Positions 13,311 to 37,309 of a stretch of DNA of 64,000 bases are shown here, in pieces. Numbering within the stretch: position 1 is the stretch's first letter; the number at the start of each line of letters is the position of its first letter. Below the pieces are notes generated by a model. That model did no database searches. It saw nothing but the letters and a program-made list of their open reading frames with translations, and was not told the origin of the DNA. This stretch comes from Botryllus schlosseri (lineage: Eukaryota), in contig CM119372.1 of assembly GCA_051294905.1 (NCBI GenBank), positions 6,946,001 through 7,010,000 on the forward strand, given 5' to 3'. Position numbers and translations under genes: made by a program.

Positions 13311-15226
13311 CACTGGCGTAGCAGCCACCTGGCGGTTCTGGCTCTGCGCCAGGGGCGGCAGGCTCGAAGGGGGCGGCAAAATGAGCCTGCACCAGCCGGC
13401 TAAAAGCAGCGTAATTGGTAGTCCTATAGCTGGCGTCCCGCGAGTTAAATTTAATCAAACTGGTCTCAATCGAAAGCTAGTGTTGCGCTGATTCCGAAAA
13501 CACAAATTAATAAGTTAACATGGCAATGGAACCACTCCGAAATCGCCGTCATGGCCGGTTGTTCATGACAATCGCAACACAATGACCAATTGACCATGAT
13601 AATGGAAATTATATCGAGCGATTATTCGGAACTACGCTGATTTTCAGACTAGCATTTAAATTGTATTTCCGGAATCAGGGCACCAATAGCTTTTAGGATC
13701 AGTATTGTTAAATTTAAGCGCTCAGAAGGCCTTGCCAACTATAGGATGACCAAGGCCAATAATGCTGCTTTTAGCTGGCTCAGCAGTAGGCTTGTCTGCG
13801 TATTCAAGTGTGAGAACTAAGTTGCGCATCTGTTCGTAGGTTAGTGATCTATACTCTGGGTTACGATTTGGTACAGCAGACCGAGATAGCTGTGAAGGTA
13901 AACCAGTCCTAGGAATTGCTTAAGATGGTAATAATTGTCAGATTGACAGATTGCGCTTAAATTTATACAAGTGTTAATTAAGACTCGAAAATAAAACGTG
14001 TCAAGAGAGTGGAGCTTTCTTTAGAAAGAAGAAGAAAGCAAGACAAGCAGAAATACAGAGGCAGATTTAAACTTGAAGCTGAAACTAGGTTTACCGGCAT
14101 ACACCACTTAAATGATATGTTTTGATTTTTAATCCCCAGGCGCTGCTGCAAAGCGAAAGTCCCAATTTATTCACCAGCGCTTTTAAAAGCACTCATGACG
14201 ACGAGGTGGACTTTATGGAGTAGGCTGCGGAAATTGACAGATTTAAGACGCTGGTGCGGAGCAGTGAAACCACGTTTGATCGTATAGTGCAACAGCGTTT
14301 GATGTTTTACAGGTGTTAGTTAATGCAAAGCTACTTGAATCGACACCGTATTTATGCTCGTGTCTGTAACTTTATCTGACCATTGGTGTTTCAAATACGA
14401 GCTGTGAGAGGAGCTTCTCAAAGCTCAAACTGATTAGGTCGTATTTACGTTCTGCCATGAATGATGATCGCCTATCAGCTCTATCCAGTCTGTCTATAGA
14501 AAGAGACTACGTTCAAAAACTTGAATTTGAGGATATTATCGCTGATTTTGTTTCGGCGAAAGCCCGAAATGTTATGTTTTAAGGTGGCTATTGATTTTCT
14601 ATTTGCACAATATTATTATTATTATGAATTCAAGGCACTTCAATGACGCTTGTTAGGCCTTGTGCATCACGACATGGAAATTATACAGTTCAGTGTCATT
14701 GTCTTTTTAAGTATCGTTGATATTTGCGTCTTTCTACAAGCGCTTCGCGATCGTTCACTTTCATTTCACTATTCACTCTTCATTTCACTCTCCCATGCAT
14801 TCAACTTCTGGTCTCGGATGCCGACTTTGTGCAACGTGGCTTACTGCGTTTCTGGGTCTTTTCAAGACACTGTTAGTACAGCGGAATCAGCGATGAAGAG
14901 CCCAGATAAACCTCCGACACATAGAAACTAGCTTGAACATGGGTTCGGACTAACCACCATTGGTGCCGCAGCGCAGTTGATTTACACACTGCGCCACTCG
15001 CCTCCCCTATGTGCACAATACATTCGTTCGCTATTTCTTGTCTTGATTATTTGTGGCCTTATTAACGTTGAGACGGTGACGCTGAAACGCGGCGTATTAT
15101 TTGTAATTATTTTTATCGATAAGATTGCTTGAACTGGAATCTATGTCGAAATTTGCTGCGGTCTACTTAGGGGGGCGGCATTTTAATCGAGAGCCAGGGG
15201 CGGCACCGCATGCTGCTACGCCAGTG
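13311..15226 (+). mobile_element. Internally deleted hAT transposon
   Basis: TIR CACTGGCGTAGCAGC ... GCTGCTACGCCAGTG; exact 8-bp TSD TCCTCACA; carries a transposase remnant. Confidence 0.92.
14292..14582 (+). pseudogene. hAT transposase C-terminal dimerisation domain remnant
   Basis: TAFDVLQVLV...L*LYLTIGVSNTSCERSFSKLKLIRSYLRSAMNDDRLSALSSLSIERDYVQKLEFEDIIADFVSAKAR; one in-frame stop. Confidence 0.88.
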
Positions 15227-15964
15227 TCCTCACATACAAAAAAATTCGACGTGCGCGAGCTATGGGGTCTCTCACAAATGTTTTTTTGTTTTGGGGGGTG
15301 TATAGTAAATTTATATCGACATATACATTTTTCTTTGTAACCTTCAACACGAACAGCCTCGAATTTTTCATTGTTATGGAGATTGGCATTGGGACGCAAC
15401 AATGCTTTTTGGACCTTTTTCTCTTGAGTTAATCTCTCGTTTCGCCAGACAGCATTGTTGCGTCCCAATGCCAATCTCAATAACAATGAAAAATTCGAGG
15501 CTGATTGTGGGAGCTCCAGGGCCACGAGCGGAATAAAATTTATATTTTCGTAATCAGTGCAGAGTCAGCTTTCGATTGATACCCGTTTTACCAAATTTAA
15601 TGCTCGGCAAGCCGGTCAAAAATGACCGTCAAATTGCCTCTGTAGCCAAAAGGAAATTGTGACGTGATACAACTTCACTGAGCCGTGAGATTTGCTTGCG
15701 TCGACACCATATAGGACACTATGGTCCAACGGTCGGATCGAAACAGAACCGCACCTCGCAGATACATCGAGGAGTACTGATGTAGTTATAGGAGTAGTGT
15801 GTGTAAATATGTTGTGTTCTTCATTCACCTCTTGCCTGCCTATTGCTTCATACTTTTGTACCGCTAACTGCCTCAATTCGGATTGTTTATTGTCTTCATT
15901 CTGTGCTTGCGTTGTATATGTTTGTGCTGCTTATAAGCTTTTGTGCTTGTCCCGAGAAGGGAGA

Positions 15965-16099
15965 TGTAGTGGTAGCTCTATGGCGCCACTAGGGTGTGAC
16001 GACATCGCAGGGGCTTCGGTGCTGGGTCGTCACTGAATACATGGCTGCTTGAGAACTCACGTCTCGTATATTAGATAGACCGTCATTCACGTTACTACA
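15965..16099 (+). mobile_element. Duplicated 3' LTR (135 bp) with PPT of the Leu-primed gypsy element
   Basis: AGAAGGGAGA then TGTAGTGG...TTACTACA; inverted copy of 35478-35612. Confidence 0.9.
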
Positions 16100-16888
16100 C
16101 TGGTCTTCGTCCAGGGCTGTGGGCTGTGTATCGTGACATTGAGCCTTGGTGTTTTGACAGCTTCGCTGGCAGGTGCCTGAAAACCCGCGCTTTCTCGGCC
16201 CCAGTCAGCCAACGAGAGTTTGTATTTCGCTGCGTTTTTCTCATTATGTTGATTGGAAATACCTCCAAACACGGCGATCTGCTCACCACAAACTGAAATG
16301 ACAGGTTTACCTTTGAGTTGAGCAAACAAATATGTAGTGCTCCGAATATTCCCTAAATGCCTGCCTTGAGCCTCCACCTTTGTTCATCTTTTATGGGTGA
16401 CCGCTAGTCACGTGGACTGATTGACATGTTTTACGGATTATGGATTGACATGTAGGCCTACGACAAGTACGACATGGAAATAAAATGAAAGCACCAACCG
16501 GGTAATTTGCAATTTGACATAATGGCGACAAACAAGTTCTGAACAACCTGGAATCCGATACTTTTGACTTTAAATGTTGCAGCATTCTTTGCTATATTTG
16601 CACCATTTTGAATCCGTGCAATTAGACTTATATTTAGGCTTACCATATTTTGGAAATAAAATTTGAGACTTGCAAAACTGGTGAATTTTTCCCACTTTGT
16701 GATCGGTTGACTAAAAAAAAAGGGTCATCTTTTCGCTCAGAGCTAAAATCACCGTTTTTCACTCCGAAATACCCGCCGGAGCGTCACTTCTGTGCTATAT
16801 TACGGCATATCATTCGCAATTTGCTATAAATCTGACCTAAATCTTCAGAAAAGAGGACAAATCCTCTTAAAAGAGGACGTATGGTAAC

Positions 16889-19800
16889 CAGAGTTGGATC
16901 AATTGTAATTTGTAATTGTAATTGTAATTGAAGCATTTCTATTTTGTGTAATTGTAATTGTAATTTGATCAAAATTTTGCTCAATTACAATCTCAATTAC
17001 ATTTTCATGGAAACCTGACAATCACAAGATAAAATAATCAATTAATCAATCATTTTTTCGTCGCACCGGTGAATATCCGGTACGAACCAGGATGACGACG
17101 AGGGGCCATAAGGCCTTAGTAAACCAGTGTTGGGATCAAGTCACTACCTTCGAGTCACGAGTCAATTCGAGTCATTGCACATTTTGACTCGAGTCAAGTC
17201 AAGTCAGTCGATTTTCGAAGGTGACTCGAGTCAAGTCAAGTCAGTCGATTTTCGGGGGTGACTCGAGTCCAGTCGAGTCAAGTCAAGTCAAGTCACAATT
17301 CAAGTCAAATTGCCTTTTCGAGGTATGAGGCGTGATTACGTCATTGTATTTTGCTAGCTGCCTGAAATACAGATTGAGTGGTCATTGATTTTGAACCGAT
17401 GAACGAATATATAGTTAAACATACACGCAAGTAAGGCGCTGTATCGCTCACGTTTAAGTAGAACTAATAAACTAATTAAGTAATTGCACAGCCTCAGTTT
17501 ATAGTTACCAGCCAAAATAGAGAATAGAGAAACGAATTGATAAGATGCAATACATTACCCTGTTGCAAATTGATATGATACAATGTCAGCCTGCGCCAAT
17601 GGTTGAGGACTATATAAACTATTTGCGAATTCAATTTCAATAAAACAAGAGGTTTGGTTAAGTTAAGAACACAGAACAGAAATAGACATTTTGCTATTAA
17701 ATTACTTTACTATACTATAGTTTACGACAGGGGTCGGCAACCTTTTGCTAGTCACGGGTCAAATTTCGAGTGCGCAACATTTTGGCGGGCCGGAATTTTT
17801 CTTAATACTATATTTATCGCTCACGTCGGTATATTACCCTACAATGCTGCAATCTCAATCATAAAAATCACAAAAAGAGCAAAACACATGTATTTACACT
17901 TCAACAACGCAAGATAAATGTGACACTTGGCGCAGCCCGCTTTGTGAAAGGTTTTCAACTTCTGGTAACAAGTCAGATGAAGCAAGAATCAGACCATATT
18001 CTAAATGGGCGTTGGAATACGTGATCTTAGCTTGCTCTTCGTGAAATTCTTTGTTGAAAACAAAAGTCGATGCCATTTCTTTTGCATTGTTGGTCAAGCT
18101 GGGATGAAGACCCATTTCAAGAACGTACTCTTTGTCAAAGTCATTCAGCGATATGCTCTTTGTATGAAATTTGTCATTCAATTCAACTGCATCGCATTTC
18201 AAATGGGCCCATTTGAAATTTTCTGGCAATGGTTTTGGCGTCCACATAAAACGGAGTAGCCTACTGAGTAGTCAGAATTTATTTTGTACAGAACGAATGT
18301 CGGAAAAGCGGGTGGAAATTCAGTAATTAAATTTCGTATATCACAGTTACAAATGTATAGTGCTGGTATACTAGGCTTACTCTCCTCCAGTATAGGAAAG
18401 TGAGCAAAATTTTCTTTGCACTGTTGACATTCCCAGAGTCGCAGTTTTGTTTCGAATGCGTCTCAACATCTCATGTAGCCTATTAATTGTTGCTCCCTGA
18501 AGTTGCAAATTCAATTTGTTTAGATGTGACCTTAAATGTACTACGAAAGCTAGATTAGATACCAATTTTCGATGACAAGATTATGAGTCGGCTATGTTCG
18601 TATTTTCAAGGAAAGTTACTATTTCATTTCTCAGTTCATATACACTCGTGCAAGCATAGCTTCTCGACTTAATGCGCGAACATGGCAGATATGCAAGACA
18701 TCGCCACATTGACGCTCTGCTTCTAGTAATATCTGAGGTAGGCTAACTGTCGGTGATTCAGTTTGTGAGACAAAATCAGCTTTCACCATTGTATCCAAAA
18801 CACTAATCAGGTTTGTTGTCTTGGCGTAAAATGTCTTCTGGCGAATTAAACTACAAATGACTAACCTACGGATGCTAGTTATCTATAATGAAACAGGGAA
18901 AGTTTGAGATTTTGTCATTGCGTCTGAGCAGAGGAACGGCACCTTTATTGTCGCACCCTATCTGAGTGGTAAACCCTTAAAAAAGTATGGTATAGGCTAC
19001 CCTCGGTTGCGCGATACACCCGCTAGTTATGCACTGGTCTGGTCTACTCCACAGACATTCTCCATCTCCTACTTTTAGTACAAGATAGGCTACTAGTCGA
19101 CCGCCTTCGCCCCAGTTTTATGGCGTAACAATATACTAATACGACGAAGGATATACTTTATATCGCAGCAATGCCGCATTCTTTCCAAGCAGTGCTGCAC
19201 TGCAGATTGGAACTCATTACGAAACGGCGGCCGTATTCTCGTGGTAACTAGTTATTTCGTCGCGGGCCGGACGATTTCGCTTGGCGGGCCGGATCCGGCC
19301 CGCGGGCCGTAGGTTACCGACCCTTGGTTTACGACAACGTATACTGTCAACTTCGATCACTTCGTTTGCGATCAATATATTTGTGAGAGAACATTGGAGG
19401 CCCAGTAAAACGCACGATCACTAAATGATTGGTCGCTCTCACGCGGGTTATTACACAAGCGTTGCGCGAACAATCCGAACATATATGTATAAGATGCAGT
19501 AGTGATTTTTATCGCCACCGATTACTTGATGACTTGAAATTGACTCGTGAATTTTGCAAATAAACTCTTCTGAAATCTGTGCTGAACCATTTCCTACATT
19601 ACGGTCAAAGTTTTTTTTCAAATCTCTGACCAGTACCATGGCTTGTTGGAACAATAGCAAAAAAAAATTCAAGTTTCCAACCAAGGCTTCATCAAACTTG
19701 ATCACGCATTTGTAGAGATGTTATCCCAATCTTGGCCAAATATACTGGGGCAAGAAACTTTTCGCCCCCTAATGTTCATCAAATGCAACCCAACAGTTTC

Positions 19801-20400
19801 CGAGCAAGTGAAAATGTAAATGCGAACCATAGTATTGTAATTCTTAGTTATCAGGAGGTTCTTTCCTTTTGCATTTATTTTAATTGTACGCACCATATCG
19901 GTATCATCCTTATCGCTGACGCCTTACCAATTACATTTCATTATCCTGACTCGGCTCTGAGTAGCCTTATCGTTTGATTACATTTCATTGACTGGTCTGT
20001 AGCCTATTCGCTGTTATTCGCTCAAACCTTTGGTTCTTAACAGTCGCTTGAAACATTTTTCTGTGCTTGTAGTTTTCAGTACTCATGATTAGGAATAGTT
20101 CGAATACGTTCGAGTTTGTTTTTTTTAATTAAAGGGTATTCTACATATCAGGAATGAAACATGAATAGCTTGAGATTGTTGCTAATTACGTCGCTACGGT
20201 TGTCAAAGAACACATCTTTACTGAATCAATTACCTGTTTAAAAGTAATTGTAATTAATTACATGTTTAACAGTAATTGTAATTATAATTTGATATTTTTA
20301 GCATTTAGTAATTGTAATTGTAATGTAATTGAAACATACAAGGAAGTAATTGTATTTGTAATTGTAATTGAATTAAAATATTGTAATTGATCCAACTCTG
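16889..20400. mobile_element. Non-autonomous hAT element with (AATTGT)n subterminal arrays, carrying nested inserts
   Basis: TIR CAGAGTTGGATCAATT ... AATTGATCCAACTCTG; exact 8-bp TSD ATGGTAAC; mirrored at 24870-28641. Confidence 0.88.
17728..19326 (-). mobile_element. Charlie/Buster-type hAT with decayed transposase (copy 1)
   Basis: TIR CAGGGGTCGGCAACC / GGTTACCGACCCTTG, TSD GTTTACGA; remnants LAFVVHLRSHLNKLNLQLQG and ...LSQSGLRQVSH typical of Buster/SPIN/GTF2IRD2-like transposases. Confidence 0.88.
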
Positions 20401-20644
20401 ATGGTAACCCTACTATAGTATATATAGGCTACGTAATCACTGTAAACCAGGAGTGTCAAAAATACGGTCCGCCAGACTATCTCATCCGGCCTGCGATGCA
20501 ATTCTGAGCAAATTGAAAAATTATGTAGCCTATGATCCAGCACATTTCTAACAAATGTTGAAATTTTTAGTAGAAAGTAATTCGATTAGATAATCTCTCA
20601 AGACAGCAATTGTCGAGCGTGTTCAACTGTTCATAGGCCACGTT

Positions 20645-23600
20645 AGTAGTAGGATGAGCTGGCTTTGGCGCAGCCCAATCAAATGTCGCCACGTCGCCTT
20701 AATTGCCACGCCTACAGGACGCCCATTGCCACGTCACCTACCGCACCTATAGCACACCCATTGCCACATCATCCCCCATTGCCGCACCTATATGACGCCC
20801 ATTGCCACATCGTGTGTATTTATGAGCAAATTTCATTGTTTTGTGAATTTCAATACCGATTTTCCATGTGTATTTAGCAATATGTATTGAATAACTTGAA
20901 ATGTATCATCACTAATTAATTAATATGAAAAGCGATTTTGAGCGCTGCGACTTGAAAATATTAATCCCTACGCTTCTGATGAATGATTTTCTGTGATAAG
21001 GACCTTGGTAACATTCAGATTCTGCAACGATTGTTTGGATATACATTTTAGCAATACCCCACTAAACTATAAGCGGTTATATTACTCTATTGGTCGGAGA
21101 TAACTCATCCGTCAATATTTTTAAACTTGATTTTATGTGTACAAGTTTCGGTTTCTGCGGTCTCCACATTTACGACATATTTTGATTAGACGCAGGTTAG
21201 CGATTCTCAAGTTCGGAGCTATGGAAACAAATCAGTCGCATGTGCACGTTCCGAAGTCGCAACAGCTTACTGAGCTTAGTAGCATATACGCGAATCCCAA
21301 GGCGAAAATAATCGAACGAACTATAGCCGCAGGCGCGCGAAGGGCTGTAATTATACAAACACTTTATCCGCATATACGCGAACCCCAGCGTTATAACGAC
21401 AGGGACTAATTATCGCGTTCTGAAGCCGTAAATTTAGTCAACTTCAATGAGATAGCCATGATTTAAAGATGGTAATATCTCTTAATGACTTAAATACTCT
21501 GAATTTTAAATTATCCACACCTATGAGTTAATACTTCTTTACTTAACAACTCCAAAGGTTAGCACAGTTTGTGGTATTTCGATTACCTGCTAATAAAATG
21601 TTGAAATGTAATGTACTTTTTTTCAGGGGTCTCGATGAATTGTACCAGTTTCATCTATTTCCTACAATGCATTTCGCTGTCCTGAATGACTTATCATCAC
21701 CGTGAAAAAATAGTAAAAATATACCGAAAATTTGGGAAGTCCTACTATGCGATATTTGAGTTTTTCAATTTACATTTCGAAATTAGCCCAGTTGGATATC
21801 AACGAAAACCACGTAAAATTTCACTCCAAACGTTATGGCTTTAACTCGAGCAAATACGTATTCCGAATTTTATGAGTGAAATAACCTTCCTTATGTCAAA
21901 TCTACATAGGGCAGAATAAATCGAAAAAACAATAAATGCGGAGGCCCAGGCTTCGAGATATAGCTCGGCGTCACACCGCGGTCCAATAACGAGAGTGGAA
22001 TAATATAGAAATCATACCGAACCATTGTAAAAGTGACGTTTCTTAGTTTATGCATATAAAATTTCACATTGTAAAAGTTAATATTCAAGGTCCATTTTTG
22101 TTTAATACTGAAACTGTCTTGAATTTGAAACAGGCCTATATCATAAACACTTGAGTAGTTGGTGCATGTAGGCAAAAAAACCACTTGAGTACTTTGAAAA
22201 AATACATGTACTTCTCTGCTCAACATCTCTGAACGATAGAAGTGGAGAAATAGTCTACAAACATAACCAGTTACTCACTTACTTACTTACTTTGAAATCT
22301 GTACTTTTACTTGTATTCGAGCGGAATTGCGCGATGTTGAGTACCATCTGACAGCGTTTATCACACTGCTGGAAAATTAAGGTTCAGTACTCGAGTATCA
22401 AATTAGATTTACTTGAGTGAACGTGAGGAGTTATAATAAGTGATTCTACTAAAGTTTCTATGTGGCGCGGTGCTGGTAAAACCACCAGCTTGATTATTTC
22501 GGAATATAGAATAGAAGACCAGCTTCTATCATCAAGCACCATAAGACCCATCATTCATACATACATACTTACATTATCTGCTTGGGGCTGTCTATCCTTA
22601 TTAAGGTACTTGGTAAGAACGTGGTAAAGCCATTGAACAGCAATTTTACACTCGCGGTTTTATTGTTATATATTCAAATTATACGTACATTTCGCGCGAT
22701 CAACTACGCATGAGTTTATGTGAATTTCATCGATAGTGTCCGAGTTCTATGTGACATAAGTACAATTTCAGCATCGGTATTTGCAATAAAGCCTAAAAAT
22801 TAGAGTTGCACCTTTTCGCGATTTATGCAGCTATTCGCGCAGATTTGCCGCATTTGCTATATCTGAAGTAGAATTTCAGCGTCGTTATTCACTATAAGCC
22901 GAGAAATGCACCTTCGCGCAATTTATATAGACAGACGCATTAACTTTGCTGCATCTGAAGTAGAATTTCAGCGTCGTTATTTGTTATAAGCCGAGAAATG
23001 TAAATTCCCGCAATTTTTACAGGCTCACACACTTTGCTGCGTCTGAAGTAGAATTTCAGCGTCGTTGTTTGCTATAAGCCGGGAAATTAGAGTCGCTGCT
23101 TCGCGCAATTTTTACAGGCAGTCTCACACACTTTGCTGCATCTGAGCTTCATACTAATACATGCATAATTTTTGCATGACGAGAACACGGGTAATTAAAT
23201 CATCAATAAACGCCGGAGGCGAGTCATTTAAACCTTGTTGCTAGATAATACCGCTTTCGGCTACAACAAAGTTGCCCTGCAACAAAAAAAAAAATAGAAG
23301 CCCTAATGATCATGCAGAGAGTTCAAAAATGCTCCACAATTCTTGACATATAATATACTGAGCATATAATAAGCTGACAAAACCTATACTTGAGTACTCC
23401 GAAATGTACAAGTACCTCACCTTCACACGACGTTTTTGTAAAATGAATACTAATTTTAATGAAAAAGTAAAAATTATGTACTCAAGTAGGTTGTTGTCTA
23501 CACGCACCAACTACTCAAGTGTTTATGACACAGGAATGATTCATTAAGTATAGCGCAAGCAGGTAAAACCTATACTTGAGTACTCCAAAATGTACAAGTA

Positions 23601-24625
23601 CTTCGCTATGTACTCCACGTAAAAAGTCACTAGATTTTAGACTACTTTATCGATTTTTGAAGTTGCGCAAATACCATAAACTTTGCTTGCTTTCAGAGCT
23701 GGCAACTAAATGCAACACAGACTTTACGCAAAAGTCTCTATTCTGAAAATTTTATCAAGGTAATAGTATAAAAACTTATACTTGAGCACTACGAAATGTA
23801 CAAGTACTTTACCTTTACACGACGTTTTTTGTAAAATGAATACTAATTTTATTGAAAAAATAAAAAAATAAAAAAAGAGCGAAAAATTACGTTTTATCCC
23901 GGAACGCAACAAGAAAAATCGTATGAATTTGTAAACTACTTATTCATGACATAATAATAATTCTACTTGTATACTATTTCATATTTTGTAACAATTTTAG
24001 TAGTACTTAAATAAAATTCGGAATATAAACTAATCGAAAAATTCGGTAACCAATTTCGCATAGGCTATGCATACAAATGAGGAAAGTTACATCAACGCGT
24101 GTAAACTAATTGTATTATGTAGCTTGTAATTCATGCAAGTTTCGAAACTTCTACACTGAGTCTTTTAAAGTAGATAGAATCGAAAAAACTAATCGAAAAT
24201 ATTTACGAAGTTTGGATGCGACATATTCGGGCTTTTAAAAATTATTCATACTCATGATTCGCAATACTTTTAACTAACTTATGTTTTCTACATAAGATAA
24301 GCGTGAAGTGTACAAATTTCGATGTTGCTCAAAATCGCTTTTCATATTAATTAATTAGTGATGATACATTTCAAGTTATTCAATACATATTGCTAAATAC
24401 ACATGGAAAATCGGTATTGAAATTCACAAAACAATGAAATTTGCTCATAAATACACACGATGTGGCAATGGGCGTCATATAGGTGCGGCAATGGGGGATG
24501 ATGTGGCAATGGGTGTGCTATAGGTGCGGTAGGTGACGTGGCAATGGGCGTCCTGTAGGCGTGGCAATTAAGGCGACGTGGCGACATTTGATTGGGCTGC
24601 GCCAAAGCCAGCTCATCCTACTACT
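20645..24625. mobile_element. Non-coding Polinton/Maverick-like element (3981 bp) with ~299-bp TIRs
   Basis: Begins AGTAGTAGG, ends CCTACTACT; TIRs 20645-20943 and 24327-24625 contain repeated CCCATTGCCAC units; no recognisable ORF inside; no direct TSD because the flanks are inverted copies. Confidence 0.6.
22755..23146. repeat. ~90-bp tandem repeat, about 4 copies
   Basis: CTGAAGTAGAATTTCAGCGTCGTT..TATAAGCCG recurs at ~22863, ~22955 and ~23043, with a diverged first copy at ~22757. Confidence 0.8.
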
Positions 24626-25009
24626 AACGTGGCCTATGAACAGTTGAACACGCTCGACAATTGCTGTCTTGAGAGATTATCTAATCGAATTACTTTCTAC
24701 TAAAAATTTCAACATTTGTTAGAAATGTGCTGGATCATAGGCTACATAATTTTTCAATTTGCTCAGAATTGCATCGCAGGCCGGATGAGATAGTCTGGCG
24801 GACCGTATGTTTGACACTCCTGGTTTACAGTGATTACGTAGCCTATATATACTATAGTAGGGTTACCATCAGAGTTGGATCAATTACAATATTTTAATTC
24901 AATTACAATTACAAATACAATTACTTCCTTGTATGTTTCAATTACATTACAATTACAATTACTAAATGCTAAAAATATCAAATTATAATTACAATTACTG
25001 TTAAACATG

Positions 25010-25264
25010 TGTAGCGTACCGCTCCATGAATAACCTATAATTAACCTCGCTGATTACTGATTATGTTACTGCTGCGTCTCTTGTGTTGTACTCTTTTATG
25101 GAGTCGCTTTTAGTCACCGTCCGAGCGAATCGTCTTTTAGTATCCGTCGGATGAGCATCGTCATGTTTTAGTTGTTTTATTAAAAGAGCAATGCTGACTT
25201 GTCTACTTTGACTTATCGAGCCGCGGACCAAGAAGAACGCGCGCCCACGACAGAGCACGCTATA
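25010..25264 (+). mobile_element. Solo LTR (255 bp), CsRN1-like gypsy
   Basis: TGTAGCG...CGCTATA flanked by 4-bp TSD CATG; the empty site is visible in the left arm at ~20261; differs from 31057-31311 at 2 positions. Confidence 0.92.
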
Positions 25265-26202
25265 CATGTAATTAATTACAATTACTTTTAAACAGGTAAT
25301 TGATTCAGTAAAGATGTGTTATTTGACAACCGTAGCGACGTAATTAGCAACAATCTCAAGCTATTCATGTTGCATTCCTGATATGTAGAATACCCTTTAA
25401 TTAAAAAAAACAAACTCGAACGTATTCGAACTATTCCTAATCATGAGTACTGAAAACTACAAGCACAGAAAAATGTTTCAAGCGACTGTTAAGAACCAAA
25501 GGTTTGAGCGAATAACAGCGAATAGGCTACAGACCAGTCAATGAAATGTAATCAAACGATAAGGCTACTCAGAGCCGAGTCAGGATAATGAAATGTAATT
25601 GGTAAGGCGTCAGCGATAAGGATGATACCGATATGGTGCGTACAATTAAAATAAATGCAAAAGGAAAGAACCTCCTGATAACTAAGAATTACAATACTAT
25701 GGTTCGCATTTACATTTTCACTTGCTCGGAAACTGTTGGGTTGCATTTGATGAACATTAGGGGGCGAAAAGTTTCTGGCCCCAGTAAATTTGGCCAAGAT
25801 TGGGATAACATCTCTACAAATGCGTGATCAAGTTTGATGAAGCCTTGGTTGGAAACTTGAATTTTTTTTTGCTATTGTTCCAACAAGCCATGGTACTGGT
25901 CAGAGATTTGAAAAAAAACTTTGACCGTAATGTAGGAAATGGTTCAGCACAGATTTCAGAAGAGTTTATTTGCAAAATTCACGAGTCAATTTCAAGTCAT
26001 CAAGTAATCGGTGGCGATAAAAATCACTACTGCATCTTATACATATATGTTCGGATTGTTCGCGCAACGCTTGTGTAATAACCCGCGTGAGAGCGACCAA
26101 TCATTTAGTGATCGTGCGTTTTACTGGGCCTCCAATGTTCTCTCACAAATATATTGATCGCAAACGAAGTGATCGAAGTTGACAGCATACGTTGTCGTAA
26201 AC

Positions 26203-27802
26203 CAAGGGTCGGTAACCTACGGCCCGCGGGCCGGATCCGGCCCGCCAAGCGAAATCGTCCGGCCCGCGACGAAATAACTAGTTACCACGAGAATACGGCC
26301 CGCCGTTTCGTAATGAGTTCCAATCTGCAGTGCAGCACTGCTTGGAAAGAATGCGGCATTGCTGCGATATAAAGTATATCCTTCGTCGTATTAGTATATT
26401 GTTACGCCATAAAACTGGGGCGAAGGCGGTCGACTAGTAGCCTATCTCGTACTAAAAGTAGGAGATGGAGAATGTCTGTGGAGTAGACCAGACCAGTGCA
26501 TAACTAGCGGGTGTATCGCGCAACCGAGGGTAGCCTATACCATACTTTTTTAAGGGTTTACCACTCAGATAGGGTGCGACAATAAAGGTGCCGTTCCTCT
26601 GCTCCGACGCAATGACAAAATCTCAAACTTTCCCTGTTTCATTATAGATAACTAGCATCCGTAGGTTAGTCATTTGTAGTTTAATTCGCCAGAAGACATT
26701 TTACGCCAAGACAACAAACCTGATTAGTGTTTTGGATACAATGGTGAAAGCTGATTTTGTCTCACAAACTGAATCACCGACAGTTAGCCTACCTCAGATA
26801 TTACTAGAAGCAGAGCGTCAATGTGGCGATGTCTTGCATATCTGCCATGTTCGCGCATTAAGTCGAGAAGCTATGCTTGCACGAGTGTATATGAACTGAG
26901 AAATGAAATAGTAACTTTCCTTGAAAATACGAACATAGCCGACTCATAATCTTGTCATCGAAAATTGGTATCTAATCTAGCTTTCGTAGTACATTTAAGG
27001 TCACATCTAAACAAATTGAATTTGCAACTTCAGGGAGCAACAATTAATAGGCTACATGAGATGTTGAGACGCATTCGAAACAAAACTGCGACTCTGGGAA
27101 TGTCAACAGTGCAAAGAAAATTTTGCTCACTTTCCTATACTGGAGGAGAGTAAGCCTAGTATACCAGCACTATACATTTGTAACTGTGATATACGAAATT
27201 TAATTACTGAATTTCCACCCGCTTTTCCGACATTCGTTCTGTACAAAATAAATTCTGACTACTCAGTAGGCTACTCCGTTTTATGTGGACGCCAAAACCA
27301 TTGCCAGAAAATTTCAAATGGGCCCATTTGAAATGCGATGCAGTTGAATTGAATGACAAATTTCATACAAAGAGCATATCGCTGAATGACTTTGACAAAG
27401 AGTACGTTCTTGAAATGGGTCTTCATCCCAGCTTGACCAACAATGCAAAAGAAATGGCATCGACTTTTGTTTTCAACAAAGAATTTCACGAAGAGCAAGC
27501 TAAGATCACGTATTCCAACGCCCATTTAGAATATGGTCTGATTCTTGCTTCATCTGACTTGTTACCAGAAGTTGAAAACCTTTCACAAAGCGGGCTGCGC
27601 CAAGTGTCACATTTATCTTGCGTTGTTGAAGTGTAAATACATGTGTTTTGCTCTTTTTGTGATTTTTATGATTGAGATTGCAGCATTGTAGGGTAATATA
27701 CCGACGTGAGCGATAAATATAGTATTAAGAAAAATTCCGGCCCGCCAAAATGTTGCGCACTCGAAATTTGACCCGTGACTAGCAAAAGGTTGCCGACCCC
27801 TG
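26203..27802 (+). mobile_element. Charlie/Buster-type hAT with decayed transposase (copy 2)
   Basis: Same element as 17728-19326, inverted; TSD TCGTAAAC. Confidence 0.88.
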
Positions 27803-29270
27803 TCGTAAACTATAGTATAGTAAAGTAATTTAATAGCAAAATGTCTATTTCTGTTCTGTGTTCTTAACTTAACCAAACCTCTTGTTTTATTGAAATTGAA
27901 TTCGCAAATAGTTTATATAGTCCTCAACCATTGGCGCAGGCTGACATTGTATCATATCAATTTGCAACAGGGTAATGTATTGCATCTTATCAATTCGTTT
28001 CTCTATTCTCTATTTTGGCTGGTAACTATAAACTGAGGCTGTGCAATTACTTAATTAGTTTATTAGTTCTACTTAAACGTGAGCGATACAGCGCCTTACT
28101 TGCGTGTATGTTTAACTATATATTCGTTCATCGGTTCAAAATCAATGACCACTCAATCTGTATTTCAGGCAGCTAGCAAAATACAATGACGTAATCACGC
28201 CTCATACCTCGAAAAGGCAATTTGACTTGAATTGTGACTTGACTTGACTTGACTCGACTGGACTCGAGTCACCCCCGAAAATCGACTGACTTGACTTGAC
28301 TCGAGTCACCTTCGAAAATCGACTGACTTGACTTGACTCGAGTCAAAATGTGCAATGACTCGAATTGACTCGTGACTCGAAGGTAGTGACTTGATCCCAA
28401 CACTGGTTTACTAAGGCCTTATGGCCCCTCGTCGTCATCCTGGTTCGTACCGGATATTCACCGGTGCGACGAAAAAATGATTGATTAATTGATTATTTTA
28501 TCTTGTGATTGTCAGGTTTCCATGAAAATGTAATTGAGATTGTAATTGAGCAAAATTTTGATCAAATTACAATTACAATTACACAAAATAGAAATGCTTC
28601 AATTACAATTACAATTACAAATTACAATTGATCCAACTCTGGTTACCATACGTCCTCTTTTAAGAGGATTTGTCCTCTTTTCTGAAGATTTAGGTCAGAT
28701 TTATAGCAAATTGCGAATGATATGCCGTAATATAGCACAGAAGTGACGCTCCGGCGGGTATTTCGGAGTGAAAAACGGTGATTTTAGCTCTGAGCGAAAA
28801 GATGACCCTTTTTTTTAGTCAACCGATCACAAAGTGGGAAAAATTCACCAGTTTTGCAAGTCTCAAATTTTATTTCCAAAATATGGTAAGCCTAAATATA
28901 AGTCTAATTGCACGGATTCAAAATGGTGCAAATATAGCAAAGAATGCTGCAACATTTAAAGTCAAAAGTATCGGATTCCAGGTTGTTCAGAACTTGTTTG
29001 TCGCCATTATGTCAAATTGCAAATTACCCGGTTGGTGCTTTCATTTTATTTCCATGTCGTACTTGTCGTAGGCCTACATGTCAATCCATAATCCGTAAAA
29101 CATGTCAATCAGTCCACGTGACTAGCGGTCACCCATAAAAGATGAACAAAGGTGGAGGCTCAAGGCAGGCATTTAGGGAATATTCGGAGCACTACATATT
29201 TGTTTGCTCAACTCAAAGGTAAACCTGTCATTTCAGTTTGTGGTGAGCAGATCGCCGTGTTTGGAGCTGA

Positions 29271-29299
29271 TGCGTGTTCATATCACGTCGGGGTCACCA
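29271..29299 (+). other. DNA copy of the 3' 29 nt of tRNA-Trp including CCA (extended PBS, not a tRNA gene)
   Basis: T-GCGTG-TTCATAT-CACGT-CGGGGTC-A-CCA = T arm, acceptor strand and CCA; the minus strand reads as the Trp PBS TGGTGACCCCGACGTGAT, 3 nt after the LTR end. Confidence 0.85.
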
Positions 29300-29302
29300 A
29301 AA

Positions 29303-29497
29303 TATAGCGTGCTCTGTCGTGGGCGCGCGTTCTTCTTGGTCCGCGGCTCGATAAGTCAAAGTAGACAAGTCAGCATTGCTCTTTTAATAAAACAACTAAA
29401 ACATGACGATGCTCATCCGACGGATACTAGAGATCGACTGACTCGGACGGTGACTAAAAGGCGACTGCACCTCCGACGGTGACTAAAAGCCGATTCG
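29303..29497 (-). mobile_element. Inverted partial LTR (U5-R side) of the Trp-primed element
   Basis: Exact reverse complement of the LTR 3' part to ~29429, then a scrambled three-unit version of the LTR internal repeat. Confidence 0.88.
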
Positions 29498-30721
29498 TTG
29501 CATCTCGCGGAAGTACATGTCGTAGAGTTGAACGATCCTATCATTTTCGACAAGTCGTTACCTGGTAAAGAACGTCCCTACGTTCCTGCAGCGCTTCGAG
29601 AGACTGTAATGCACAGTGTGCATGATATTTCGCACCCCGGTATACGCGCGACCACTAAATTAATAGCTGAACGTTATGTATGGCCTGGCATGAAACGACA
29701 TGTGAACGATTTCGTCCGTCATTGTCAGCAGTGTCAACGATCGAAGATTCATAGGCATACTCGAACTGCAATTACCAATCTTCCCGTCCCTTCCGAACGC
29801 TTTCATACGGTTAACGTGGACATTTTATCACTCCCTAATAGTTGCGGCTACTCGTATATTTTGATGTGTGTTGATCGCTATACTCGCTGGCCTGTGTGTG
29901 TTCCAATGATGGACATTCGTGTCCAAACTGTTATTGATGCGTTTAGTTTTGGCTGGGTGTCGAATTTCGGCTCACCCCGTAAAGTCATAACCGACCGAGG
30001 AAGTCAGTTTACCTCGCTTGAATGGACTCAGTATATGCAATTCTTGGGTATTTTCCACATCAAAACCTTGGCGTATAAGCCGGAGCAAAATTCTCTTGTC
30101 GAACTCTATAACAGAACTTTGAAAGCCTCCCTCCGCGCATTAGAAAGTCCTCATAATTGGTATCATCATTTAGGCTTAATTGTTTTAGGGCTGCGATGTT
30201 CTGTCAAGGAAGATCTCGGTTATTCACCAGCAGAGCTTGTGTATGGCACTTCCCTTCGATTACCCGGTCAATTAGTCGATCCCTCTCCCAGTGGCAATAA
30301 CGCTAATGATTTCAACTACGTCGGTGAATTAAAACGCTTTTTCTCAGCCTTGGGTGAGATGCCGACTAAGTTTCATTCGAATCAAAAATCTTATGTCCCA
30401 AACGATTTGAATAATTGCACGCACGTTTTCTTGCGGATAGATGGTCATCGTAGATCACTCGATCCGGTTTATTCTGGTCCGCATCAAGTTTTAAAACGCA
30501 CTCGTGAATGTTTCACAATTCTAACGAATAAGGGTCCGTATGACGCCTCAACCGACAGGCTTATACCTGGCAGACTTCCCATCGAGCGTCTCGACGAATT
30601 GACGCCACCGCAAGCTGACACTTCGCGAGCAAACTCTGTGTCGACCAGTGGCCGTATTATTCGTACTCCACATCACTTGAATGATTTTGTGTTGTCACCA
30701 GTATTTAATATGGATATTTAG
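29498..30721 (+). CDS. Gypsy (CsRN1-like) integrase, 5'-truncated pol fragment with open frame
   Basis: HDISHPG...CQQC zinc finger, VDIL / ITDRGSQF / NSLVELYN DDE core, YSGPHQV GPY/F motif; no ATG start, no RT or gag. Confidence 0.92.
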   Translation: MHLAEVHVVELNDPIIFDKSLPGKERPYVPAALRETVMHSVHDISHPGIRATTKLIAERYVWPGMKRHVNDFVRHCQQCQRSKIHRHTRTAITNLPVPSERFHTVNVDILSLPNSCGYSYILMCVDRYTRWPVCVPMMDIRVQTVIDAFSFGWVSNFGSPRKVITDRGSQFTSLEWTQYMQFLGIFHIKTLAYKPEQNSLVELYNRTLKASLRALESPHNWYHHLGLIVLGLRCSVKEDLGYSPAELVYGTSLRLPGQLVDPSPSGNNANDFNYVGELKRFFSALGEMPTKFHSNQKSYVPNDLNNCTHVFLRIDGHRRSLDPVYSGPHQVLKRTRECFTILTNKGPYDASTDRLIPGRLPIERLDELTPPQADTSRANSVSTSGRIIRTPHHLNDFVLSPVFNMDI

Positions 30722-31056
30722 TGTGTTACTCATTCACTTTTCCGCCATCACTTGTATTTTTTCGCAACAGGCTCCTTCATCTCCTGTATGTTCTATAAAT
30801 CGTGTCTTGAGCCTTTCTCATTGTAAAGTGCATCATTATCGCTAAACGAACAATTGTGTCGTTTATAGCTTTACCACCACGCCCACTCCACTTTCATTAG
30901 TCATTATAACATTTAGAATTGAACTCGTATTCGAATCGTAATCTGTAATCATTGCCGTGTCATGCTGGTAGCGTCGTTCATTCGTATATAGTTGAATCGT
31001 TGACTGATGTAGTGTCCATATCATATCCTAAAGCTTTTACCAACCAGGGGGGCCCT

Positions 31057-31311
31057 TGTAGCGTACCGCTCCATGAATGACCTATAATTACCCTCGCTGA
31101 TTACTGATTATGTTACTGCTGCGTCTCTTGTGTTGTACTCTTTTATGGAGTCGCTTTTAGTCACCGTCCGAGCGAATCGTCTTTTAGTATCCGTCGGATG
31201 AGCATCGTCATGTTTTAGTTGTTTTATTAAAAGAGCAATGCTGACTTGTCTACTTTGACTTATCGAGCCGCGGACCAAGAAGAACGCGCGCCCACGACAG
31301 AGCACGCTATA
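31057..31311 (+). mobile_element. 3' LTR of the Trp-primed element, preceded by PPT
   Basis: AGGGGGGCCCT then TGTAGCG...CGCTATA followed by CATG. Confidence 0.92.
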
Positions 31312-32249
31312 CATGTAATTAATTACAATTACTTTTAAACAGGTAATTGATTCAGTAAAGATGTGTTCTTTGACAACCGTAGCGACGTAATTAGCAACAA
31401 TCTCAAGCTATTCATGTTGCATTCCTGATATGTAGAATACCCTTTAATTAAAAAAAACAAACTCGAACGTATTCGAACTATTCCTAATCATGAGTACTGA
31501 AAACTACAAGCACAGAAAAATGTTTCAAGCGACTGTTAAGAACCAAAGGTTTGAGCGAATAACAGCGAATAGGCTACAGACCAGTCAATGAAATGTAATC
31601 AAACGATAAGGCTACTCAGAGCCGAGTCAGGATAATGAAATGTAATTGGTAAGGCGTCAGCGATAAGGATGATACCGATATGGTGCGTACAATTAAAATA
31701 AATGCAAAAGGAAAGAACCTCCTGATAACTAAGAATTACAATACTATGGTTCGCATTTACATTTTCACTTGCTCGGAAACTGTTGGGTTGCATTTGATGA
31801 ACATTAGGGGGCGAAAAGTTTCTGGCCCCAGTAAATTTGGCCAAGATTGGGATAACATCTCTACAAATGCGTGATCAAGTTTGATGAAGCCTTGGTTGGA
31901 AACTTGAATTTTTTTTTGCTATTGTTCCAACAAGCCATGGTACTGGTCAGAGATTTGAAAAAAAACTTTGACCGTAATGTAGGAAATGGTTCAGCACAGA
32001 TTTCAGAAGAGTTTATTTGCAAAATTCACGAGTCAATTTCAAGTCATCAAGTAATCGGTGGCGATAAAAATCACTACTGCATCTTATACATATATGTTCG
32101 GATTGTTCGCGCAACGCTTGTGTAATAACCCGCGTGAGAGCGACCAATCATTTAGTGATCGTGCGTTTTACTGGGCCTCCAATGTTCTCTCACAAATATA
32201 TTGATCGCAAACGAAGTGATCGAAGTTGACAGCATACGTTGTCGTAAAC

Positions 32250-33849
32250 CAAGGGTCGGTAACCTACGGCCCGCGGGCTGGATCCGGCCCGCCAAGCGAA
32301 ATCGTCCGGCCCGCGACGAAATAACTAGTTACCACGAGAATACGGCCCGCCGTTTCGTAATGAGTTCCAATCTGCAGTGCAGCACTGCTTGGAAAGAATG
32401 CGGCATTGCTGCGATATAAAGTATATCCTTCGTCGTATTAGTATATTGTTACGCCATAAAACTGGGGCGAAGGCGGTCGACTAGTAGCCTATCTCGTACT
32501 AAAAGTAGGAGATGGAGAATGTCTGTGGAGTAGACCAGACCAGTGCATAACTAGCGGGTGTATCGCGCAACCGAGGGTAGCCTATACCATACTTTTTTAA
32601 GGGTTTACCACTCAGATAGGGTGCGACAATAAAGGTGCCGTTCCTCTGCTCAGACGCAATGACAAAATCTCAAACTTTCCCTGTTTCATTATAGATAACT
32701 AGCATCCGTAGGTTAGTCATTTGTAGTTTAATTCGCCAGAAGACATTTTACGCCAAGACAACAAACCTGATTAGTGTTTTGGATACAATGGTGAAAGCTG
32801 ATTTTGTCTCACAAACTGAATCACCGACAGTTAGCCTACCTCAGATATTACTAGAAGCAGAGCGTCAATGTGGCGATGTCTTGCATATCTGCCATGTTCG
32901 CGCATTAAGTCGAGAAGCTATGCTTGCACGAGTGTATATGAACTGAGAAATGAAATAGTAACTTTCCTTGAAAATACGAACATAGCCGACTCATAATCTT
33001 GTCATCGAAAATTGGTATCTAATCTAGCTTTCGTAGTACATTTAAGGTCACATCTAAACAAATTGAATTTGCAACTTCAGGGAGCAACAATTAATAGGCT
33101 ACATGAGATGTTGAGACGCATTCGAAACAAAACTGCGACTCTGGGAATGTCAACAGTGCAAAGAAAATTTTGCTCACTTTCCTATACTGGAGGAGAGTAA
33201 GCCTAGTATACCAGCACTATACATTTGTAACTGTGATATACGAAATTTAATTACTGAATTTCCACCCGCTTTTCCGACATTCGTTCTGTACAAAATAAAT
33301 TCTGACTACTCAGTAGGCTACTCCGTTTTATGTGGACGCCAAAACCATTGCCAGAAAATTTCAAATGGGCCCATTTGAAATGCGATGCAGTTGAATTGAA
33401 TGACAAATTTCATACAAAGAGCATATCGCTGAATGACTTTGACAAAGAGTACGTTCTTGAAATGGGTCTTCATCCCAGCTTGACCAACAATGCAAAAGAA
33501 ATGGCATCGACTTTTGTTTTCAACAAAGAATTTCACGAAGAGCAAGCTAAGATCACGTATTCCAACGCCCATTTAGAATATGGTCTGATTCTTGCTTCAT
33601 CTGACTTGTTACCAGAAGTTGAAAACCTTTCACAAAGCGGGCTGCGCCAAGTGTCACATTTATCTTGCGTTGTTGAAGTGTAAATACATGTGTTTTGCTC
33701 TTTTTGTGATTTTTATGATTGAGATTGCAGCATTGTAGGGTAATATACCGACGTGAGCGATAAATATAGTATTAAGAAAAATTCCGGCCCGCCAAAATGT
33801 TGCGCACTCGAAATTTGACCCGTGACTAGCAAAAGGTTGCCGACCCCTG
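32250..33849 (+). mobile_element. Charlie/Buster-type hAT with decayed transposase (copy 3)
   Basis: Duplicate of 26203-27802; TSD TCGTAAAC. Confidence 0.88.
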
Positions 33850-35850
33850 TCGTAAACTATAGTATAGTAAAGTAATTTAATAGCAAAATGTCTATTTCTG
33901 TTCTGTGTTCTTAACTTAACCAAACCTCTTGTTTTATTGAAATTGAATTCGCAAATAGTTTATATAGTCCTCAACCATTGGCGCAGGCTGACATTGTATC
34001 ATATCAATTTGCAACAGGGTAATGTATTGCATCTTATCAATTCGTTTCTCTATTCTCTATTTTGGCTGGTAACTATAAACTGAGGCTGTGCAATTACTTA
34101 ATTAGTTTATTAGTTCTACTTAAACGTGAGCGATACAGCGCCTTACTTGCGTGTATGTTTAACTATATATTCGTTCATCGGTTCAAAATCAATGACCACT
34201 CAATCTGTATTTCAGGCAGCTAGCAAAATACAATGACGTAATCACGCCTCATACCTCGAAAAGGCAATTTGACTTGAATTGTGACTTGACTTGACTTGAC
34301 TCGACTGGACTCGAGTCACCCCCGAAAATCGACTGACTTGACTTGACTCGAGTCACCTTCGAAAATCGACTGACTTGACTTGACTCGAGTCAAAATGTGC
34401 AATGACTCGAATTGACTCGTGACTCGAAGGTAGTGACTTGATCCCAACACTGGTTTACTAAGGCCTTATGGCCCCTCGTCGTCATCCTGGTTCGTACCGG
34501 ATATTCACCGGTGCGACGAAAAAATGATTGATTAATTGATTATTTTATCTTGTGATTGTCAGGTTTCCATGAAAATGTAATTGAGATTGTAATTGAGCAA
34601 AATTTTGATCAAATTACAATTACAATTACACAAAATAGAAATGCTTCAATTACAATTACAATTACAAATTACAATTGATCCAACTCTGGTTACCATACGT
34701 CCTCTTTTAAGAGGATTTGTCCTCTTTTCTGAAGATTTAGGTCAGATTTATAGCAAATTGCGAATGATATGCCGTAATATAGCACAGAAGTGACGCTCCG
34801 GCGGGTATTTCGGAGTGAAAAACGGTGATTTTAGCTCTGAGCGAAAAGATGACCCTTTTTTTTTAGTCAACCGATCACAAAGTGGGAAAAATTCACCAGT
34901 TTTGCAAGTCTCAAATTTTATTTCCAAAATATGGTAAGCCTAAATATAAGTCTAATTGCACGGATTCAAAATGGTGCAAATATAGCAAAGAATGCTGCAA
35001 CATTTAAAGTCAAAAGTATCGGATTCCAGGTTGTTCAGAACTTGTTTGTCGCCATTATGTCAAATTGCAAATTACCCGGTTGGTGCTTTCATTTTATTTC
35101 CATGTCGTACTTGTCGTAGGCCTACATGTCAATCCATAATCCGTAAAACATGTCAATCAGTCCACGTGACTAGCGGTCACCCATGAAAGATGAACAAAGG
35201 TGGAGGCTCAAGGCAGGCATTTAGGGAATATTCGGAGCACTACATATTTGTTTGCTCAACTCAAAGGTAAACCTGTCATTTCAGTTTGTGGTGAGCAGAT
35301 CGCCGTGTTTGGAGGTATTTCCAATCAACATAATGAGAAAAACGCAGCGAAATACAAACTCTCGTTGGCTGACTGGGGCCGAGAAAGCGCGGGTTTCCAG
35401 GCACCTGCCAGCGAAGCTGTCAAAACACCAAGGCTCAATGTCACGATACACAGCCCACAGCCCTGGACGAAGACCAGTGTAGTAACGTGAATGACGGTCT
35501 ATCTAATATACGAGACGTGAGTTCTCAAGCAGCCATGTATTCAGTGACGACCCAGCACCGAAGCCCCTGCGATGTCGTCACACCCTAGTGGCGCCATAGA
35601 GCTACCACTACATCTCCCTTCTCGGGACAAGCACAAAAGCTTATAAGCAGCACAAACATATACAACGCAAGCACAGAATGAAGACAATAAACAATCCGAA
35701 TTGAGGCAGTTAGCGGTACAAAGGTATGAAGCAATAGGCAGGCAAGAGGTGAATGAAGAACACAACATATTTACACACACTACTCCTATAACTACATCAG
35801 TACTCCTCGATGTATCTGCGAGGTGCGGTTCTGTTTCGATCCGACCGTTG

Positions 35851-36444
35851 GACCATAGTGTCCTATATGGTGTCGACGCAAGCGAATCTCACGGCTCAGT
35901 GAAGTTGTATCACGTCACAATTTCCTTTTGGCTACAGAGGCAATTTGACGGTCATTTTTGACCGGCTTGCCGAGCATTAAATTTGGTAAAACGGGTATCA
36001 ATCGAAAGCTGACTCTGCACTGATTACGAAAATATAAATTTTATTCCGCTCGTGGCCCTGGAGCTCCCACAATCAGCCTCGAATTTTTCATTGTTATTGA
36101 GATTGGCATTGGGACGCAACAATGCTGTCTGGCGAAACGAGAGGTTAACTCAAGAGAAAAAGGTCCAAAAAGCATTGTTGCGTCCCAATGCCAATCTCCA
36201 TAACAATGAAAAATTCGAGGCTGATTGTGGGGGTTCCAGGGCCGCAAGCGGAATAAAATTTATATTTTCGTTATCAGTGCAGAGTCAGCTTTCGATTGAT
36301 ACCCGTTTTACAAAATTTAATGCTCGGCAAGCCGGTCAAAAATGACCGTCAAATTGCCTGTAGCCAAATGGAAATTGTGACGTGATACAATTTCACTGAG
36401 CCGTGAGATTTGCTTGTGTCGACACCATATAGGACACTATGGTC
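35851..36444. mobile_element. Palindromic (foldback) MITE, 594 bp
   Basis: GACCATAGTGTCCTATATGGTGTCGAC ... GTCGACACCATATAGGACACTATGGTC; arms run almost to the centre; no clear TSD. Partial copies at 15354-15726 and 61312-61445. Confidence 0.85.
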
Positions 36445-37309
36445 GGACTATCGCCGCCTCATGATGGTCATCGCGATCGACACTAGTAGCGCTCGAACTG
36501 CTATCTCCTCCCTGATAGGGAAATTTGAAGAATTCAGCTGCCTCACTGGCGGTAATGTCGACGCCTTCTTGCGCGGTATTCTCCATCTGGTATCTCCGCA
36601 CCATTCGGCGATTTCTTCTGAAGGTGCCTCGCCCAGTTCTGATAACCAAGGATCTGGGTTGAGTGTCAGTGTCAAGTTTTTCCACAACACCCTGCGATTT
36701 GCAGTCCGGAATCCAGACGCGATCTCCCACCTTGAACTCATCTCCAGGTACTACTCTGTGTCTTTTGTTGTAATCACGAGTATCTCTGCGTCGGTAATCT
36801 TCTTCGGCTTTCTTCGCGGCGGTTCGGTCGACAGGCTTGGGCAGAAGATCGTCTGGATGACACGGTACTCTTGTTCGTAGATTGCGGCCCATGCTCAATA
36901 CTGCCGGCGAGTAGCCGATAGCCAATGACGTGTTGGGGTATGTGAGTAGCGCCAGATATTCATCGTCACATTTTCGCAGAAGGTTTTTGATGGTCTGAAC
37001 GGCACGCTCAGCCTCCGAGTTCCCCTGTGGATATCTAGGTGAGGACATGATATGTTCAATTTTCCAGCTTTCGCAAAATAACGCAAAGTCACGGGAAGAG
37101 AACATAGGTGCTCCATCTGTGACCAAAGTCTCGCAGATGCCGTGCCCACTGAAAATCTTCTTGAATTTCAGAATCGTCTCTGCTGCGTTCACTGTTATGG
37201 AGACAATGCAAATCTCAATGTCCCTGGAGTAGCAGTCAACGGCTAGCACGTACATGGAATTCTGGTATTGAAAGAAGTCGGCACCAACACGGGACCAGGG
37301 TCTCTCTGG
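36445..37309 (-). pseudogene. Integrase core and C-terminus of the Mag-like element
   Basis: PERPWSRVGADFFQYQNSMYVLAVDCYS...LVTDGAPMFSS...SSPRYPQGNSEAERAVQTIK; the frame resumes past the MITE as QRSDRNRTAPRRYIEEY*. Confidence 0.9.

Follow-up and report, generated by a model that had tools for sequence, protein, structure and literature searches.

How does the DNA on one side of a transposon come to mirror the DNA on its other side, with the symmetry running straight through the ends of the element itself? A locus in Botryllus schlosseri raises this question. It lies in a stretch of 64,000 nt (assembly GCA_051294905.1, contig CM119372.1, positions 6,946,001-7,010,000 of the forward strand), which we analysed in full and refer to below as the window; all coordinates are window positions, position 1 being its first letter. 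At its centre sits a small gene-less element with the ends of a Polinton, and this element is flanked by an inverted duplication. We confirm that the duplication is genuine, and we establish its geometry, its donor side, the order in which it and its neighbours arose, and that the ends of the element are the boundary of a repeat family. As for its origin, we judge it probable that this is a recent local inverted duplication, produced by a repair or replication template switch between the element's two 299-bp terminal inverted repeats (TIRs), in which 5.3 kb of right flank was copied and the left flank replaced. The features needed to follow the argument are these:

15353..15354, unstranded: outer junction, 76 bp beyond the midpoint of a hairpin-forming miniature inverted-repeat transposable element (MITE)
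15354..20943, reverse strand: left arm, inverted copy of the right TIR and right flank (from self-comparison and alignment)
20639..20644, forward strand: CACGTT, mirroring the right-hand hexamer where a direct target-site duplication (TSD) would be expected
20645..24625, unstranded: gene-less element of a multi-copy family with (AGT)2//(ACT)2 ends, 3,981 bp
20645..20943, forward strand: left TIR, 299 bp; three subterminal repeats of 34 bp each
20944..24326, unstranded: unduplicated spacer, that is, the interior of the element, 3,383 bp
24327..24625, reverse strand: right TIR, 299 bp, 100% identical to the left TIR
24626..24631, forward strand: AACGTG, surviving right-flank hexamer and putative half of a 6-bp TSD

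When the window is compared with itself, three inverted blocks emerge (24327-25010 against 20943-20260, 25261-29266 against 20268-16263 and 31308-36229 against 20268-15348), and the exact limits of inverted identity fall at 20943/24327 on the inner and 15354/36223 on the outer side. The left arm measures 5,590 bp, 5,291 bp of it outside the AGTAGT terminus, and is identical to the right side at 5,578 of 5,590 positions once a long terminal repeat (LTR) present only on the right is left out, the differences being 12 substitutions and one 1-bp gap. A chance origin of this match is excluded (BLAST E = 0.0). Inverted identity starts at the inner edges of the TIRs and passes across the termini of the element seamlessly, so that the hexamers beside the element, CACGTT on the left and AACGTG on the right, are mirror images and no direct TSD is seen. 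An original prediction made from the letters of this stretch had given the same inner limits, the same 5,291 bp past AGTAGT and the same mirrored hexamers, and all of these coordinates hold, both hexamers being read where they were expected. Its description of the right arm was correct in geometry and incomplete in content, in that it lacked a direct duplication of 4.26 kb; owing to this direct repeat (25010-29266 and 31057-35314), the right side spans 11.9 kb and is not a single 5.6-kb arm. The outer junction bears no end motif, no AGTAGT end and no TSD, and neither a remnant of AACGTG nor a templated insert of at least 8 bp from nearby DNA was found there; we do not take a 4/6 likeness just beyond it as microhomology, lacking the old allele for comparison. 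Apart from one short real inverted pair (22009-22192/23478-23656) the spacer is not mirrored. We considered and rejected the idea that it is a decayed palindrome, given 10 inverted hits, against 4-6 in shuffled sequence, that lie on differing axes.

Knowing that one side mirrors the other does not tell us which side is the original. Here the elements nested in the right side are informative:

25010..25263, forward strand: solo LTR of a Gypsy element, TSD ACATG, missing from the left arm
25264..29266, forward strand: right copy 1 of a 4-kb segment, X
29267..29469, reverse strand: inverted patch comprising a primer-binding site (29282-29299) and an LTR end, with clustered mismatches at the junction
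29483..31310, forward strand: Gypsy 3' remnant with an integrase frame (29483-30721), purine tract and 3' LTR (31057-31310)
31311..36223, forward strand: second right copy of X (ending at 35314) with segment Y (35315-36223); the left arm's outer part was copied from here
35478..48925, reverse strand: second Gypsy element with both 135-bp LTRs and TSD ACCAG, heavily interrupted
35851..36444, unstranded: hairpin MITE, 594 bp, intact in the right side, truncated in the left arm

The second Gypsy element, whose primer site we take to be of tRNA-Leu type, keeps its pair of 135-bp LTRs and its TSD, ACCAG, only on the right; the left arm contains its 3' LTR and tail. Similarly, the MITE, which folds into a strong hairpin (z = -49, 100 shuffles), is complete at 35851-36444, and in the left arm it breaks off 76 bp beyond its midpoint. 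Because both are complete only on the right, the right side is the donor. The original prediction had reached this view from the Gypsy element and had also placed the end of the copy inside the MITE, and it was right on both counts. A third, truncated copy of the MITE family lies at 61312-61445. The Leu-type Gypsy is split by inserts of about 10 kb (37309-48719), in which we note a 293-bp direct repeat (37309-37601/47672-47958) and another of 565 bp (37713-38277/43423-43987).

The order of events can be read from the solo LTR at 25010-25263, which we assign to a Gypsy element primed by tRNA-Trp, taking the primer-binding site at 29282-29299 to be of that type, and from segment X. ACATG stands on both sides of the LTR and is present once in the left arm, which lacks the LTR. 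X exists in three copies: at 6 sites the left arm departs from both copies on the right, which carry 3 and 2 private changes, none of them found in the left arm. The inverted copy therefore came first, followed by the Gypsy insertion and then by the direct duplication, in agreement with the earlier claim that the inversion preceded the Trp-type LTR. The order derived from the differences in X could be blurred by gene conversion.

Is the inverted copy present in the organism, and where does the element end? Public contigs speak to both questions. Twenty-four public runs matched, all of them Logan contigs, and four (X1, X2, X16 and X17) were compared over 12800-24326. X1 and X2 are one sample, possibly the assembled individual; X16 and X17 are two further samples. 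These results rest on the matches listed, and summed depth is a rough measure that yields no copy number. Summed depth is 226, 242, 62 and 927 at position 20461 and 21,980, 7,888, 15,617 and 18,688 at 20774, a 20- to 250-fold rise in all four runs (in X1 from 226 to 21,980), and in X1 it is about 1,400-7,600 at the listed interior sites between 21177 and 22675. The central element is clearly a multi-copy family in which the TIR is commoner than the interior, and AGTAGT is the true end of that family. One X16 contig (record 13, 20379-20674), which carries the right-arm letter at 20461, ends after the first 30 letters of the element, which is where a graph of 31-mers breaks off at the edge of a repeat and one letter short of the rule for bridging. 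An X17 contig of depth 829 (record 22) spans the inner edge of the left TIR with 11 letters on the TIR side; since the join between left TIR and interior occurs in a high-depth contig of another sample, it predates the duplication.

Depth also bears on the number of copies of X. In X2 the window version of X has a depth of 44.4-47.3, against 13.7 for a diverged version that differs from it by 10 letters and 6 gap letters in 183. This ratio of roughly 3.2 is about what three copies of X predict, if the 13.7 contig is a single allele. At 16180 in X1, 26.2 of a depth of 51.3 lacks the right-arm letter. Depth over 16265-16649 is near the single-locus level and far under that of repeats. With the edge of the repeat falling exactly on AGTAGT and the duplicated segment present in about three copies, an artefact is unlikely.

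Does the duplication replace the left flank in place, or does it join two unrelated loci? An older transposon provides a frame:

11047..24822, unstranded: older hAT-type host element with facing ends and 8-bp flanks, holding both the break and the Polinton-ended element

Its ends face each other (CAGGGGTGTCAAA at 11047 and ...GACACTCCTG at 24822), and the 8-bp flanks, GTCTACAG before and GTTTACAG after, are alike at 7 of 8 positions; we call it hAT on the assumption that end motif and 8-bp flanks are diagnostic. With up to 4 mismatches allowed in 16 letters, a search of the window turned up one convincing partner facing the 24822 end, namely that at 11047. Of the window's 63,993 8-mers, 31 match the flank as closely as 7/8. 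The host ends also resemble, weakly, the opposite ends of a related element at 26203-27802 (scores 41 against 32 and 37 against 18). Since host ends and flanks pair up, the left and right flanks most likely belong to one locus in the same orientation. With both flanks inside one hAT-type element, the duplication would most likely be a local replacement, and the lost DNA most likely lay within this old transposon and its nested inserts. The host is discontinuous, and the old left flank with AACGTG is not found at the junction. Two further insertions occur in this region: a hAT-type element at 13311-15226 with TSD TCCTCACA, whose empty site shows up in X1, X2 and X17 as the joint 13302>15227, and a hAT-like insertion at 11305-12372 with TSD GTTATAAA, nested in the host hAT.

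What, then, is the element at the centre? AGTAGT at 20645 and ACTACT at 24625 make up a terminal motif of Polinton/Maverick type. The available portions of the papers give (AGT)2//(ACT)2 or (AG)3//(CT)3 as Maverick terminal motifs (PMC8097293) and 100-1,000 bp as the range of Polinton TIRs (PMC4196379), a range that includes 299 bp. In these two features the element is like Polintons and their gene-less derivatives as described there. It differs from Polintons, going by the same portions, in being 4 kb rather than 15-20 kb long, in having no core gene and in that its TSD is not visible. None of the gene set of an autonomous Polinton (pPolB, integrase, ATPase, protease, capsid) was found in its 3,981 bp; the longest stop-free frame is 127 aa, and 0 of 19 scanned frames were above the Pfam cut-off (25 are listed, the rest being in or mirroring the TIR). 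Rfam returned no matches, phage records contained no match to the element, and the exact TIR and end patterns had none in viral contigs or metagenome contigs. Any direct 6-bp TSD is unreadable, the left flank having been overwritten by the mirror copy, and neither an empty site nor a pre-event allele occurs among the contig matches listed. Judged by its end motif and TIR length, the element is likely a non-autonomous Polinton; the Polinton-like identity originally proposed holds for the ends and the TIR length and is putative beyond them. Contigs of X17 and X2 skip 2,139 bp and 1,800 bp, respectively, of the interior within 21528-23668, which points to shorter members of the family or to joints wrongly placed among its internal repeats.

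With element, donor and locus in place, we can ask how the mirror arose. Inverted homology existed beforehand at both edges of the spacer, on the left in the TIR-interior join of X17 record 22 and on the right in the TIR of the donor side. Imagine that a break or a stalled fork to the left of the element lays bare single-stranded DNA. The left TIR could then pair with the right TIR, forming a panhandle with a 3.4-kb loop, or it could find the right TIR of the sister chromatid. The old left flank, unpaired and with its TSD, would be clipped away, and synthesis would proceed outward along the right flank, stopping just beyond the tip of the 594-bp hairpin, whereupon the new strand would be joined to the left fragment at 15353, within the same host hAT. 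Pairing of TIRs, clipping of the flap and outward synthesis would together account for both the seamless crossing of the termini and the loss of the direct TSD. We infer these individual steps of pairing, clipping, synthesis and rejoining from the sequence. Of the TIR-to-TIR pairing and outward synthesis originally put forward, the switch at the TIR pair is borne out, and the initiating break is one candidate trigger beside a stalled fork and the element's helper enzymes.

Several points weigh against this account. Among the matches listed, no contig crosses 15353/15354 or the right inner TIR edge. X17 has only the right-arm letter at 16180. X16 has only right-arm letters at both diagnostic sites listed (20461 and 16180) and a 2:1 depth of X over that of the TIR flank, a combination that could reflect a direct duplication without a left arm. 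X2, from the same sample as X1, is also without the left letter at 16180, however, so that absence proves nothing. The depth argument presumes that the 13.7 contig is a single-copy allele. The pairing of hAT ends is weakened by the target preference of such elements, the flank of the related element in the window being alike at 6/8. The original left flank was not recovered. Finally, the letters are compatible with break repair, a fork switch or a nick by a helper integrase.

This last option deserves attention, as it would make the element itself the agent. A Polinton integrase supplied in trans would nick the left terminus only, the 3' end released in this way would anneal to the opposite TIR and be extended by a polymerase across the right flank. 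The ends are indeed of the Maverick (AGT)2//(ACT)2 type, the TIRs are 100% identical, the family is multi-copy, and a single-stranded, racket-shaped intermediate is the route proposed for Polintons in the available portion of PMC4196379. We nevertheless consider this explanation unlikely. Had the terminus been nicked, the old flank with its AACGTG ought still to lie close to the junction, and no such hexamer is present there; the missing TSD remnant is a mild argument against a clean nick. Flap clipping after TIR pairing yields the same seam without any enzyme of the element, and the case rests on a single locus. It is just as doubtful that Polinton-ended elements in general mirror their own flanks during mobilisation, a one-sided integrase nick and panhandle priming copying host DNA outward. 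Were this true, mobilisation would be a recurrent source of inverted duplications in the host, and mirrored flanks, if common at Polinton ends, would be a genomic trace of the long-proposed and never observed racket-shaped intermediate.

A template switch between the TIRs also has to be weighed against a two-step history, in which a longer palindrome or inverted triplication, formed by a fork template switch of the ODIRA type (inverted-repeat amplification that is origin-dependent), was later trimmed by a deletion ending in the MITE and by recombination between the TIRs. Such a history has been suggested for the same copy-number pattern at F8 (PMC10766186, in part), the outer junction does lie inside a strong hairpin, and the locus was rearranged again soon afterwards. 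It requires more events, however, the window contains neither a remnant of a further arm nor a short-spaced palindromic junction, and the far end of the host hAT is still in the left flank, all of which makes it quite improbable in our eyes. That the duplication was created by the assembly, from a fold-back read or from haplotypes joined through the TIR, is very unlikely. The TIR would allow an assembly graph to exit where it entered, and no spanning read is among the matches listed; yet 13 changes and an LTR with its TSD set the arms apart, X reaches about 3.2 times the depth of the diverged version in X2, about half of the X1 depth at 16180 carries a letter other than that of the right arm, the sample has another version of X whose divergence is far greater, and both flanks lie in one hAT with near-matching 8-bp flanks. 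Least credible of all, and barely worth entertaining, is that a larger fold-back element has the 5.6-kb arms as its ordinary long TIRs: the AGTAGT ends point outward from the inner side, the outer end, which bears neither end motif nor TSD, severs a MITE whose sequence carries on in the right side, and the near single-locus depth of the arm at 16265-16649 contradicts it. As far as the data reach, neither of the two outcomes that the original prediction had named as refuting it has materialised.

Once formed, the inverted copy did not remain undisturbed. The direct block 25010-29266 against 31057-35314 (4,258 bp, 99.84% identical in window self-comparison) surrounds a broken Gypsy remnant whose integrase frame at 29483-30721 matches the Pfam domains Integrase_H2C2 (1.4e-20) and rve (2.4e-12). 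After the inverted copy, a Trp-primed Gypsy would have inserted, a direct duplication with an inverted patch would have followed, and LTR-LTR recombination would have left the solo LTR. The whole of this second rearrangement (25010-35314) fits multiple template switches followed by solo-LTR formation, and perhaps reflects fragility of the locus once the palindrome had formed. Slipped repeats occur within it at 29435-29493. Elsewhere in the window lies a 1.3-kb fold-back structure (49370-50655) with TTAGGG-like tandem repeats on opposite strands, and a GGTTAG array at 56853-57049 is similar to the repeats in it.

Relative to the first description of the locus, the later direct 4.26-kb duplication on the right, the position of both flanks inside one older hAT-type element and the contig evidence are new. 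Host genes are untouched, the duplicated DNA consisting of nested repeats. What the locus offers is a clean natural case, datable through nested insertions, of a fold-back duplication for which one transposon supplied the inverted repeat in the form of its own two ends. It also carries a warning for annotation: such an event wipes out the TSD and masks the real length of the TIR. Open-access titles and abstracts, to which our literature search was confined, include none on mirrored Polinton flanks or on the TIR pair of a single element as a fold-back substrate.

How does this locus compare with systems that are already known? Older work on P elements and Tam3 reportedly dealt with inverted duplications as well. 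In sister-chromatid transposition of Ac/Ds (PMC3239180), a TIR element likewise stands beside an inverted duplication of flanking DNA; that process, according to the available text, depends on two element ends lying close together and places an end at the new junction. We rejected alternative transposition of this kind here, there being no element end at the outer junction, which lies inside the MITE. Repair-linked duplications have been described beside hobo insertions, and in the part of PMC11226609 available they do not have the present form. A closer parallel is found in yeast, where Alu pairs 1.5 and 5 kb apart give rise to inverted dimers in single-stranded DNA in a process that requires Rad1 (PMC10164571, in part). 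There, as proposed here, repeats of about 300 bp that lie kilobases apart anneal, a flap is removed (Rad1-dependently in yeast) and an inverted copy results; the yeast case is experimental and ends in dicentric breakage, whereas here a short tract was copied and rejoined. At human F8, an inverted duplication with deletion (INV-DUP-DEL) has one junction at long inverted repeats and another without homology (PMC10766186, same limits). The present case is alike in having one long-inverted-repeat junction and one with little or no homology, and in being interstitial. The human low-copy repeats are far longer and farther apart, and the deletion here would be an inferred one. Human fold-back duplications (Hermetz et al. 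2014, PMC3907307, from the portion available) have spacers with a median length of 3,428 bp, and among 21 junctions 3 lie at inverted repeats of about 300 bp. The unduplicated spacer of 3,383 bp is alike, as is the inverted homology at its edge, a 296-bp AluY in one human case and a 299-bp TIR here. Those rearrangements are terminal, megabase-scale and arise via a dicentric chromosome; ours is interstitial, 5.6 kb long and rejoined in the same host transposon, and its repeat pair is the two ends of one element. The layout matches a class already known from these three systems (PMC3907307, PMC10766186, PMC10164571), in which fold-back at inverted repeats produces a deletion, a single-copy spacer and an inverted duplication, the deletion being putative here, and it calls for no new mechanism.

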